64,000 nucleotides of DNA from an uncultured Planctomycetales bacterium (GCA_964354795.1 CAYHBB010000003.1:5887-69886), one strand, 5' to 3'; positions 53,158 through 54,762 are shown, counted from the stretch's first letter. Translations and numbers: made by a program. The notes: a model not told the origin generated them from the sequence alone.

Positions 53158-53186
53158 TTGTAAAACGTTATTAGATAATATATAAT
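53158..53186 (+). promoter_or_regulatory. near-consensus sigma70 promoter TTGTAA-N17-TATAAT driving the PqqD / Cys-peptide / SPASM cassette
   Basis: TTGTAA at 53158-53163 and TATAAT at 53181-53186, in the 114-nt AT-rich gap after the upstream gene. Confidence 0.5.
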
Positions 53187-53218
53187 AAGTACAGCGTTAA
53201 ATTATTGAAGGGCTAACA

Positions 53219-53587
53219 ATGATAGAAGTTAAGTTATTGAGATATAGAAGGGCAGATAGGGTCACGGAAAGAAAGATCGGTGACACTTTATTGCTTGTCC
53301 CTTTTAAAAAAACTCCGGGCTCCGGCGTCAAGGGCGTAATGCTTAAAAATGCCAGTGCTCAATTTATTTGGAAATTATGCGAGAAAGGAATGTATCTTAG
53401 GGATATTATTGAATCAGTAACTGCCGAATTTAATGTTGATAAAGACAAAGCTAATTGCGAAATACAAGCCTTGCTGGAGAAACTGCTCCGCTTGGAACTG
53501 GTTATTTGTTTAAACGGCGCCAAGAAGGGGAGCGAGAAAAAAGAAGGAGGAAAGAATGGAAGAAAAGAGAAAATGGGAAAATCCTGA
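53219..53587 (+). CDS. PqqD-family protein (RiPP recognition element / peptide chaperone); the last ~25 codons are low-complexity read-through overlapping the next gene
   Basis: TLLLVPF...MLKNASAQFIWKLCEKGMYLRDIIESVTAEFNVDKDKANCEIQALLEKLLRLELV matches the PqqD profile (.L.LN..a..iW.l.dG..t..eI...l...y.v....a..dv..fl..L...gLi). Confidence 0.6.
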   Translation: MIEVKLLRYRRADRVTERKIGDTLLLVPFKKTPGSGVKGVMLKNASAQFIWKLCEKGMYLRDIIESVTAEFNVDKDKANCEIQALLEKLLRLELVICLNGAKKGSEKKEGGKNGRKEKMGKS

Positions 53588-53672
53588 AGTCGAGCTTATT
53601 TCTATCGATATGGACCAGATCTTTACTGTGGGTTTTAGTGGAGGGTGTTGCGGCTGCTGCTGCTGCTGTTAA
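53556..53672 (+). CDS. 38-aa Cys-rich peptide MEEKRKWENPEVELISIDMDQIFTVGFSGGCCGCCCCC, candidate RiPP precursor (not in the ORF track because it is under 60 aa)
   Basis: ATG at 53556 sits 7 nt after a perfect AAGGAGG Shine-Dalgarno; the stop is TAA at 53670. Of the last 10 residues 8 are Cys, and a GG precedes this core. The gene lies between a PqqD-like gene and a SPASM radical SAM gene. Confidence 0.5.
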   Translation: MEEKRKWENPEVELISIDMDQIFTVGFSGGCCGCCCCC

Positions 53673-53715
53673 TGTTTAAAGAATCTTTGATACAACGTTA
53701 AGTTGATGTGTTGAA

Positions 53716-54762
53716 ATGTCTGAATATAAAACAATTGATTCGTGCACTTGGGAACTTACCTTTCGTTGCAACGCAAAATGTCCTTTTTGCTATCAGGACA
53801 ATACTCCCACCAAAGAGCTGTCAACCAAAGAGTCATTTCAAGTACTAGATAAATTAGCGGAAAACGGGATTATCTTTCTTTTGTTTACCGGTGGCGAACC
53901 AACGGTAAAAAAGGAATTTATTCAGATATACCGGTATGCCGCAAAAAAAGGCTTTCAGATTTCTATTCTTACCAATGGGATACGGCTCGCCGATAAAGAT
54001 ATCCAGGATCTTTTTACTGAGTATCCGCCTGTTGGAGCCGTGATTAGCCTCCATGCTCTAGATGAGGCCATTTTTGAGCAGGTGAGCTGTGTACCCGGAT
54101 CTTTCAAGAAAGTTATGGCCGGTCTGGAATTCTTAAAAAAAATAAAAGTAAAATATAGTTTTAAAATAATAGTTACAAAGATTAACGCTCAATCTATAGG
54201 CGAAATTAAAGACTATTGTCATCAGAATTCAATAGGGTACGAGTTGACACCTAATATATGTAATAGTCTTAATGGAAAGAGAGCTAATGATATAAATGAT
54301 ATAAGGCTTGAATTTAACGAAGCGAATAATTTATTTTTTCAAGAAGATTACGGACGCGTTTTTGATGAAATGGAGCGTAAGCTAGGAAATTTAGATAACA
54401 AATTTAAGAAGAGAAGGTCAAGGTTTAATTGCGCGCTTGTTTATCGCACGATTTGGCTTGATCCGCTTGGAAACACTTTTATTTGTGCCATGTTCAGAGA
54501 TAAGCCCAGATTAAATATTCTTAAAGACTCAATAGATGAGATTTATAAAAAACATCTGGAAATTGCTAATGATTATGAAGTTAGGCCACCCGAATGTTTA
54601 AAGTGTGAGTATCTTCCGGAGTGTAAGTATGCTTGTGTCTGCGGAATAAGAAATGCCCGAAGAATATCCAAAGAAGAGTTCGATTATGTATGTAACGGGC
54701 TTAAGAGTATTATCCATCTAAGAAGAAGGCTGGATAAGAATAAGTTAAACATCGCCGTTTAA
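53716..54762 (+). CDS. radical SAM/SPASM-domain enzyme, candidate peptide maturase
   Basis: FRCNAKCPFC (CxxxCxxC), LFTGGEPT, C-terminal C-x2-C-x5-C-x3-C-x-C (ECLKCEYLPECKYACVCG) canonical SPASM core. Confidence 0.8.
   Translation: MSEYKTIDSCTWELTFRCNAKCPFCYQDNTPTKELSTKESFQVLDKLAENGIIFLLFTGGEPTVKKEFIQIYRYAAKKGFQISILTNGIRLADKDIQDLFTEYPPVGAVISLHALDEAIFEQVSCVPGSFKKVMAGLEFLKKIKVKYSFKIIVTKINAQSIGEIKDYCHQNSIGYELTPNICNSLNGKRANDINDIRLEFNEANNLFFQEDYGRVFDEMERKLGNLDNKFKKRRSRFNCALVYRTIWLDPLGNTFICAMFRDKPRLNILKDSIDEIYKKHLEIANDYEVRPPECLKCEYLPECKYACVCGIRNARRISKEEFDYVCNGLKSIIHLRRRLDKNKLNIAV

Follow-up and report, generated by a model that had tools for sequence, protein, structure and literature searches.

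A PqqD–peptide–radical SAM cassette with a contiguous C-terminal cysteine tract in a planctomycete glycan island: a probable RiPP-type system with a new precursor family

The only known role of discrete PqqD proteins is to present peptides to partner enzymes that modify them, and in the biosynthesis of pyrroloquinoline quinone (PQQ), PqqD binds the leader of the peptide PqqA and docks on the SPASM domain of PqqE (PMC10906245). C–S bond formation is the commonest reaction of SPASM enzymes on peptides that are ribosomally synthesized and modified after translation (RiPPs) (PMC10114670), and CteB has an auxiliary cluster whose open iron takes a substrate cysteine as a ligand (PMC8172795). Here, we analyzed a 64,000-nucleotide stretch of DNA from an uncultured Planctomycetales bacterium (GCA_964354795.1 CAYHBB010000003.1:5887-69886; "the window" means this whole stretch), in which genes for a PqqD-family protein, a 38-aa peptide ending in a run of cysteines and a SPASM-type radical S-adenosylmethionine (SAM) enzyme stand side by side within a large glycan locus (cassette at 53158-54762).

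Two further groups of described systems bear on this locus. A 2026 structural and biochemical study reported that the motif [Y/W]xxPx[L/V/I/F/A] is the determinant bound by discrete RiPP recognition elements (RREs) in the pathways for lasso peptides and linear polyphosphorylated peptides (LPPs), WxxP variants included; in LPP clusters, a discrete RRE and a YxxPxV leader occur together with an S26-type peptidase that removes the leader, an HprK-like kinase polyphosphorylating Ser3 of the core, an NTP transferase and an exporter, and these clusters lie inside polysaccharide or capsule loci, as paeninodin clusters do (PMC13381572). Thiooxazole peptides, including the radical SAM-associated SbtMa peptide, bind Cu(I), and their clusters may be without proteases (PMC12538549).

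The planctomycete locus contains all parts of the generic RRE-dependent SPASM RiPP class, namely a radical SAM core, a SPASM Cys motif, an RRE and an adjacent conserved precursor with a leader motif. From its gene content and conservation we consider it probable that the trio is an RRE-dependent radical SAM peptide-maturation (RiPP-type) cassette with a new precursor family.

A conserved peptide gene between the PqqD and radical SAM genes

The cassette consists of three co-oriented genes on the plus strand, with a 32-nt overlap between those for PqqD and the peptide. Its features are as follows (coordinates are those of the window).

53158..53186, plus strand: TTGTAA-N17-TATAAT, a promoter-like site ahead of the PqqD gene (consensus scan, 10/12 matches)
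53219..53587, plus strand: PqqD-family protein of 122 aa (PF05402), Lys-rich in its C-terminal tail; a discrete RiPP recognition element
53544..53550, plus strand: Shine-Dalgarno sequence AAGGAGG, 5 nt before the peptide ATG and still within the PqqD gene, at its 3' end
53556..53672, plus strand: precursor peptide gene, 38 aa, MEEKRKWENPEVELISIDMDQIFTVGFSGGCCGCCCCC (open reading frame and conservation; no Pfam or NCBIfam match)
53574..53591, plus strand: W7-E-N-P10-E-V12, a leader recognition motif that fits [Y/W]xxPx[L/V/I/F/A]; W7, P10 and V12 are invariant in four alleles
53646..53669, plus strand: C-terminal cysteine tract CCGCCCCC, presumed core and modification site
53716..54762, plus strand: radical SAM/SPASM enzyme of 348 aa without a fused recognition domain (PF04055)
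53767..53790, plus strand: [4Fe-4S] cluster motif C18-x3-C22-x2-C25 (read from the sequence)
54430..54693, plus strand: SPASM auxiliary-cluster region C239-x12-G-x4-C257, C294-x2-C297-x5-C303-x3-C307-x-C309, C326 (Cys pattern)

An earlier note, made from the sequence alone, had drawn attention to this trio, and the three genes were found at the positions it gave. It had named as a check the conservation of a short Cys-rich open reading frame (ORF) in orthologous loci, and an ORF between the PqqD and radical SAM genes was present in every orthologous locus with readable DNA (for P0004 no contig DNA was obtained). The loci (L numbers) carry four alleles, which end as follows.

Window and L009: ...FTVGFSGGCCGCCCCC
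L041 and L042: ...FTVGFSGGCCGCCCCCC
L003 and L004: ...FNVGFSGGCCCCC
L005, L044 and L045: ...FSVGFSGGCCYCCCCC

The reading frame of the 38-codon ORF was conserved in all four alleles. Its AAGGAGG Shine-Dalgarno sequence was kept in L003, and AAGGGG-like purines stood at the same place in L005. The segment VGFSGGCC was invariant (including Ser28), and the Cys run after it varied in length, always in frame, between lineages. The tails of the four alleles read CCGCCCCC, CCGCCCCCC, CCCCC and CCYCCCCC, with five to eight cysteines across alleles and a fixed part upstream. In the window peptide, cysteine accounts for seven of the last ten residues, rather than the eight counted originally, with seven thiols within eight residues, and this tail is the only run of at least four Cys in all six frames of the 64-kb window.

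The substitution pattern was that of a protein-coding gene. Pairs of alleles differed by 4–14 synonymous and 2–5 non-synonymous changes (pS, 0.22–0.76; pN, 0.02–0.06; dN/dS, 0.04–0.09), and when the same DNA was read in the other two frames nearly all changes became non-synonymous. The pN/pS ratio of the peptide gene, 0.04–0.15 (0.08–0.15 over the full length), was the lowest in the cassette, compared with 0.28–0.35 for the PqqD gene and 0.15–0.25 for the radical SAM gene (pS up to 0.86). The indels in the Cys tract, of 9 nt and 3 nt, were all in frame, and the spacer 3' of the peptide stop codon diverged much faster than the gene itself. By these measures of substitution, the 38-codon ORF is a genuine gene under stronger purifying selection than either flanking enzyme.

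These data bear directly on the possibility that the ORF is an artefact, that is, a (TGC)n microsatellite in intergenic spacer sequence, open by chance. A trinucleotide repeat does make up the tract, and the consensus scan called it terminator-like; the window ORF is absent from the protein collection, and the ORF was left uncalled in L005, L009, L044 and L045. Two orthologous peptides have already been called as hypothetical proteins by the JGI gene caller. Within the tract, TGC and TGT codons were exchanged synonymously between lineages, and G or Y codons interrupted it; therefore, it is not a drifting pure microsatellite. Together with the low pN/pS, the frame dependence of the changes, the in-frame indels, the strong Shine-Dalgarno sequence and the faster-diverging spacer, this leaves an accidental ORF with next to no probability, and we regard that explanation as already refuted by the substitution pattern.

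The near-consensus promoter described in the earlier note is present, but sites of this kind were as frequent in shuffled sequence: nine promoter-like sites were found in the AT-rich stretch, compared with 9.5 expected from shuffles. The TTG of the -35 element and the TATA of the -10 element were invariant across four lineages, whereas the rest of the spacer was only 56% identical. The site is thus supported because TTG and TATA are conserved, not because of site frequency. In L003, an 80-bp insertion lies just upstream of it.

The PqqD/peptide/radical SAM trio keeps the same place in four lineages while both flanks vary, and a more distant island, L046 (AsnB 60% identical), lacks the cassette. 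Therefore, the trio is a self-standing accessory module. The downstream glycosyltransferase gene (GT2 type) was replaced or rearranged among lineages. In the lineage with the CCYCCCCC tail, a gene for a 434-aa secreted helical protein with no Pfam match (L005 8867-10171; L044 17771-19075) overlaps the end of the SPASM radical SAM gene by 4 nt, an arrangement that suggests translational coupling.

Across window positions 52064-54762, we also observed a mosaic of affinities to L003 and L041. The upstream radical SAM protein and the PqqD protein were 92% and 85% identical to those of L003 at the amino acid level (pS 0.16–0.20), whereas the SPASM enzyme was nearest to that of L041 (96% amino acid identity; pS 0.10, compared with 0.44 to L003). 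This pattern suggests a recombination breakpoint near the peptide gene.

The family proved to be rare. A profile search with the peptide against 5.8 billion protein clusters returned its own cluster alone, and an exhaustive HMMER search of 1.84 billion representative proteins returned the same cluster and two long Bacteroidota-like repeat proteins (P0028 and P0029). The latter were rejected as relatives, their scores being spurious sums of ten weak repeats (NPxVNLISADxD...). Pfam gave no match to the peptide, and neither did any NCBIfam precursor model at E≤0.1, the only NCBIfam signal being NfuA noise at E ~0.09. A peptide-guided scan of metagenome contigs, in a collection from which these loci are evidently absent, produced 420 pattern matches, none of which was confirmed, and scans guided by the radical SAM enzyme, in contigs of species-representative genomes and in metagenome contigs, revealed no further members and only relatives of at most 31% identity. 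Relatives of the enzyme comprised one identical protein and proteins of 80%, 75% and 68% identity, with none of the remainder above 33%; the Elusimicrobia locus of one relative (L001) contained neither a PqqD gene nor a Cys-rich ORF. Full-text literature searches on poly-, contiguous or consecutive-cysteine RiPPs and on SynChlorMet gave nothing relevant. The cassette is thus known from about ten metagenome contigs from roughly ten samples, in four closely related lineages. The proposal that it is a RiPP-like unit outside the known classes, with a peptide unlike known ones, was borne out by these searches: no curated precursor or maturase family claims the cassette, and neither of the two protein collections holds a relative of the peptide.

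Recognition element, radical SAM enzyme and proposed chemistry

The identity of the PqqD-family protein was confirmed by Pfam (PF05402, 40.2 bits; gathering cut-off, 23.4). Its top NCBIfam matches were lasso, GeoRSP, SynChlorMet ScmD, HPr-rel-A and PQQ chaperones, all under the curated cut-offs, and its nearest solved relative by sequence was the lasso RRE TbiB1. A single-sequence AlphaFold2 model of low confidence (pLDDT 62) superposed best on TbiB1-leader complexes, another lasso B1 protein and PqqD; because the model is poor, these fold matches lend weak support to the RRE identity. Five orthologues were 65–98% identical. No second PqqD-like ORF was found in the window, near its other radical SAM genes or elsewhere, with two custom hidden Markov models built from few sequences, which could miss a very divergent RRE.

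The 38-aa peptide is the only peptide in the window with the leader motif. Its leader could be aligned with those of the distant precursors in SynChlorMet-like cassettes (L048, L007 and L008), giving the pattern K-K-x-[Y/W]-x-x-P-x-[L/V/I]-x-[V/L]; the cores of those peptides differ from that of the window but also hold Cys. The alignment puts the leader-core boundary near G26, before FSGG. The GG ahead of the Cys block had been read in the earlier note as a double-glycine leader junction. Since no C39 peptidase or PCAT was found among the window ORFs of at least 110 aa scanned against Pfam, and since the boundary lies near G26, that junction is unsupported.

The radical SAM core of the enzyme matched PF04055 well above the cut-off (76.8 vs 29.5 bits). 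C18, C22 and C25 of the cluster motif were invariant in the orthologues and nearly invariant among 16 homologues. The C-terminal region shows the full SPASM Cys pattern and one extra cysteine (C309), and all eight cysteines were invariant in four orthologues, of which the 80%-identical one is annotated by JGI as "radical SAM protein with 4Fe4S-binding SPASM domain". An AlphaFold model built from the 16 homologues (pLDDT 76) matched SuiB, SkfB, BlsE, MoaA, anSME (TM 0.69), PqqE and CteB in a Foldseek search of the PDB. Alignments started at residues 9–16 of the enzyme but at residues 100–135 of SkfB, SuiB, AlbA and StsB, past the N-terminal RREs fused to those proteins. The enzyme has no N-terminal RRE and therefore needs recognition in trans, like PqqE and MftC. 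One full-length match, the 27%-identical P0014, was rejected as a peptide-system relative because its context is of the haem/NirJ type.

By analogy with PqqD-PqqE and MftB-MftC, the PqqD-family protein would bind the leader as a strand through the WxxPxV motif and dock on the SPASM domain. Docking would bring the C-terminal FSGGCC(x)CCCCC core into the active site, where the enzyme would cleave SAM reductively and take a hydrogen atom from the peptide. The Cys thiolates would be engaged in this reaction, possibly, as happens in CteB, by ligating the open iron site of auxiliary cluster I. The product may then remain intracellular, like a cofactor or a metal-binding peptide, or leader removal and export may be provided by genes elsewhere in the island.

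As to the reaction itself, our tentative preference, short of an even chance, is for one or more intramolecular thioether links (sactionine or ranthionine type) from cysteines of the tail; likely acceptors would be carbons of the invariant IF-x-VGFSGG or the invariant acidic, leader-proximal residues E11, E13, D18 and D20. Thioethers are placed first because C–S bond formation is the commonest SPASM RiPP reaction and because of the precedent of Cys ligation in CteB. We give a smaller chance, perhaps one in five, to other Cys-directed radical chemistry, such as thiooxazole-type heterocycles or another metal-binding modification of the tail. The number of cysteines varies while the upstream part is fixed, which suggests that the tail is used iteratively or redundantly and not according to one rigid cross-link map. 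On a bolder and somewhat less likely reading, the tail would be a scaffold and not a set of cross-link donors: an iterative ladder of consecutive thiooxazole or thioether units, a peptide-bound metal-sulfur cluster, or a multivalent S-linked attachment point on which glycosyltransferases of the island build a glycopeptide. If true, this would be RiPP chemistry or a peptide-glycan conjugate without described precedent.

Several observations weigh against a RiPP-type maturation cassette. The SPASM region, called textbook in the earlier note, has a complete Cys motif behind a clear radical SAM core, but the SPASM model TIGR04085 scored 26.9 bits against a cut-off of 27 (E 5e-6), a borderline value, and the Pfam SPASM model PF13186 gave no match even at E 10; the C-terminal third of the AlphaFold model is of low confidence. 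Although 71 NCBIfam families matched the enzyme, all were far under their cut-offs, and the reaction is therefore not transferable by homology. The chemistry is drawn from family-level precedent alone; contiguous cysteines are sterically awkward donors for classical sacti- or ranthipeptide rings, and we know of no described thioether RiPP with a contiguous-Cys core, nor did we find one in the literature. Conservation is documented in a single narrow clade, about four lineages of uncultured organisms. In Pfam scans of the neighbouring ORFs, no leader peptidase or exporter was linked to the trio, and the ScmC/HprK-like homologue lies 24 kb upstream, so that "self-contained", as the cassette was first described, may be too strong. 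Finally, the window has nine other radical SAM genes without a PqqD gene, indicating that a non-peptide role of radical SAM enzymes is common in this island.

The absence of a protease or exporter from the unit also fits an unlikely alternative, in which the trio is a cofactor-type system with the logic of mycofactocin or PQQ and the peptide is consumed to yield a small, sulfur-rich redox or metal cofactor, intracellular and possibly glycosylated by the neighbouring glycosyltransferases. A discrete PqqD, a peptide of ~30–40 aa modified at its C-terminus and an RRE-less SPASM enzyme make up the mftABC/pqqADE layout, and MftC is among the few models that aligned over the full length of the enzyme (residues 10–308), yet the scores were far from family level (MftC, 75.5 vs 265 bits; PqqE, 65.8 vs 381 bits). 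The GT2 enzyme MftF glycosylates mycofactocin, and MftF was third among the NCBIfam matches of the GT2 gene downstream of the cassette (54866-55813); its 52 bits against a cut-off of 280 reflect generic GT2 similarity, however, and the adjacency is not kept, since L003 has a different gene order and L005 and L044 have the 434-aa secreted protein there. Homologues of MftD and MftE were absent from the Pfam scan of the neighbours, and the C-terminus of the peptide is unlike GVY or E-x3-Y. We also doubt, to a like degree, that the peptide is a carrier or anchor decorated by island enzymes (by phosphorylation, glycosylation or S-linked sugars), as in LPPs and paeninodin-type lasso peptides, with the radical SAM step as one of several. 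LPP clusters do combine an RRE, a YxxPxV leader and tailoring genes within polysaccharide loci (PMC13381572), and the window has one RRE and one leader-motif peptide only, with an invariant Ser28 in VGFSGG. It also encodes a 289-aa protein with a weak Peptidase_S24 match, a GDSMRP serine-peptidase motif and a GNAT-like C-terminus (27819-28688), an adjoining 302-aa HprK/ScmC-like P-loop protein (28696-29604; weak Hpr_kinase_C match, E 1.8e-4; BLASTP E 3e-14 to the ScmC-like protein of L048) and a PF14907 nucleotidyltransferase (16369-17496). This set resembles LPP/paeninodin tailoring genes and is an attractive but weak lead. The genes lie 24–37 kb from the cassette, however, the S24-like and HprK-like matches are under cut-off, PDB sequence searches of both proteins were uninformative, and the occurrence of the island without the cassette (L046) indicates that most island enzymes serve a glycan.

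An unmodified peptide is more improbable still. It would act as a metallothionein-like binder of metal or Fe-S, or as a sulfur donor for the radical SAM enzymes, and the PqqD protein would be merely a chaperone. Seven thiols in eight residues are a strong set of soft-metal ligands, variation in tail length is tolerated, and the ten radical SAM genes in the window are Fe-S-dependent; but the whole 30-residue N-terminal part is very strongly constrained and carries an RRE-binding motif, which a plain metal-binding tail would not need, discrete PqqDs are known only as presenters of peptides (PMC10906245), and the trio is inherited as a unit. We retain the RRE-dependent maturation cassette as the probable reading.

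The surrounding glycan island

One large polysaccharide locus, mostly on the plus strand, makes up the window. It has genes for glycosyltransferases (GT1, GT2 and GT-C/PMT_2), methyltransferases, AsnB, a Wzm/Wzt-type ABC-2 system, Wzy_C and YdjC. Ten radical SAM genes, three SPASM and four B12-dependent, are interleaved with the GT1, GT2 and GT-C (PMT_2) genes, and the radical-SAM-rich stretches are 2485-10090, 29611-33185, 42212-43891 and 49361-54762. The features outside the cassette are as follows.

2485-6237: 1250-aa protein with two radical SAM stretches and a B12-binding domain
6218-7483, 7470-8696 and 8693-10090: three consecutive SPASM radical SAM genes
29611, 31809 and 42212 (starts): B12-dependent radical SAM genes
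36372-37848: ABC-2 (Wzm/Wzt-type) pair, the only complete ABC system
49361 (start): PTO1314-like radical SAM gene
52046..53104, plus strand: second radical SAM gene, probable start at 52064 (PF04055, 39 bits; C-terminal part weakly STM4011-like)

The second radical SAM gene, immediately upstream of the cassette, had been suggested to belong to the same pathway. It was present in the window, L003, L009, L041 and L042, but the lineage with the CCYCCCCC tail (L005, L044 and L045) has a 448-aa SGNH/AlgX-like protein in its place (L005 5702-7048; L044 14606-15952), so it is not an obligate partner of the trio. The pair formed by AsnB and the PTO1314-like radical SAM protein (49361-52011) was conserved also in the cassette-less L046 (10001-12993) and is probably a sugar-modifying module independent of the cassette. 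After this pair, the window, L005, L041, L042 and L044 have a gene for a 536-aa multi-pass membrane protein with no Pfam match.

Downstream of the cassette, a block at 57024-60416 encodes an ECF-type sigma factor, a protein of 232 aa (weak Ig-like or beta-sandwich match) and a CHAT-TPR protease-like protein, and it is kept in L003, L041 and L042. A c-di-GMP-I riboswitch aptamer (60542-60638, plus strand; 37.3 bits vs the Rfam gathering cut-off of 35) follows the CHAT-TPR gene and precedes small ORFs and the gene for a 136-aa protein. At 18303-19559, nucleotidyltransferase and GT-C genes surround a gene for a RuBisCO large-subunit-like protein (PF00016, E 7e-40), probably a RuBisCO-like protein of form IV, for which the context is unusual. 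Neither tRNA nor rRNA genes were found in the window, and a search with AsnB returned no named close relative.

Significance and comparison with known systems

No source of new peptide chemistry has been more productive than SPASM radical SAM enzymes paired with recognition elements, and new precursor types have tended to reveal new reactions. For a contiguous C-terminal Cys core that is conserved, tolerant in length and more constrained than its enzymes, we found no description in the literature, and the compact three-gene target of ~1.6 kb could reveal how adjacent thiols are handled by a SPASM enzyme. For LPPs in Bacillota, a link between ribosomal peptides and surface-glycan machinery has recently been proposed, and the cassette may help to show whether such coupling occurs in uncultured bacteria. 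The shared leader motif also points to so far unannotated precursors of ScmC-associated cassettes. As a counterweight, uncharacterised radical SAM-RRE cassettes are numerous and the distribution of the poly-Cys cassette is very narrow.

The nearest homologues outside the family were SynChlorMet-like, ScmC/HprK-associated PqqD-radical SAM-peptide cassettes (L048 and L006-L008), whose radical SAM proteins were 30–38% identical to that of the window; the PqqD protein of L048 was 31% identical. In L048, from a metagenome-assembled genome of Deltaproteobacteria, the order is PqqD, radical SAM, a 60-aa ORF and a ScmC/HprK-like protein; L006-L008 bring together two or three radical SAM genes, a ScmC-like protein and an ORF of 60–64 aa. 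The small ORFs that adjoin the ScmC-like genes (L048 6064-6246, L007 2847-3041 and L008 2927-3109) have a K-K-x-Y-x-x-P-x-[LI]-x-V leader and no NCBIfam match, and look like the precursors of these cassettes. The distant cassettes are themselves below the curated SynChlorMet cut-offs (ScmE/ScmF for the radical SAM proteins of L006 and L007, ScmC for L007, ScmD for L048). The window cassette scored 58.5 vs 400 bits for ScmE and 17.3 vs 100 bits for ScmD, has one SPASM enzyme, not two or three, and has no adjacent ScmC, the homologue being 24 kb off. Furthermore, the peptide cores of the distant cassettes hold three spaced cysteines, whereas that of the window ends in a contiguous run.

Mycofactocin (MftA/B/C) and PQQ (PqqA/D/E) share with the window a discrete PqqD, a short peptide modified at its C-terminus, an RRE-less SPASM enzyme and the lack of a dedicated exporter. 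PqqA also has a W-x-x-P-type N-terminal segment. Besides the MftC score (TIGR03962) given above, mycofactocin differs in that the window peptide ends in CCCCC and not in C-G-V-Y, and that MftD/E are lacking. PQQ differs in the scores of PqqE (TIGR02109, see above) and PqqD (TIGR03859, 13.7 vs 46 bits), in a peptide without E-x3-Y and in the lack of PqqB/C partners.

Sacti- and ranthipeptide systems (SCIFF, PapB and QhpD) resemble the cassette in having Cys-rich precursors processed by SPASM or twitch radical SAM enzymes. SkfB was the best-scoring solved relative of the window enzyme by sequence, and the StsB, AlbA and SkfB models aligned over most of it, but their scores were low (82.9 vs 625, 63 vs 850 and 64.5 vs 300 bits, respectively), and PapB stood outside the 25 best matches. 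In those enzymes the RRE is fused N-terminally, whereas it is a separate protein in the window; their known cores have spaced cysteines with defined acceptors, whereas the window family has five to six contiguous C-terminal cysteines in variable number.

Lasso, LPP and paeninodin systems resemble the cassette in three ways: in both NCBIfam and the PDB, the PqqD protein was matched best by lasso B1 chaperones (TbiB1 among them), the leader has the [Y/W]xxPx[L/V/I/F/A] motif, and the site is a glycan island with HprK-like, S24/S26-like and PF14907 genes. The lasso B1 model scored 23.8 vs 80 bits, and a radical SAM enzyme is not part of the lasso or LPP core machinery. A lasso reading was rejected, as the scanned ORFs include no transglutaminase-like B2 or cyclase beside the RRE and no acidic residue that could close an isopeptide ring follows G26; the AsnB of the island has an intact GATase domain and occurs also in the cassette-less L046. 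The thio(seleno)oxazole maturase SbtM and the MNIO systems for thiooxazole or methanobactin-like chalkophores likewise convert peptide cysteines into metal-binding groups, often in clusters without a linked protease (PMC12538549). The SbtM model scored 71.5 bits vs a cut-off of 350, covering mainly the radical SAM core, and the known substrates of SbtM and MNIO enzymes have cysteines flanked by other residues and not Cys-Cys repeats.

The mycofactocin, PQQ, SCIFF/sacti/ranthi, SynChlorMet and lasso models all scored far under their cut-offs, and by these sequence models the cassette is outside every curated family. The type of machinery is familiar, whereas the precursor family is new, as is its contiguous C-terminal Cys core.

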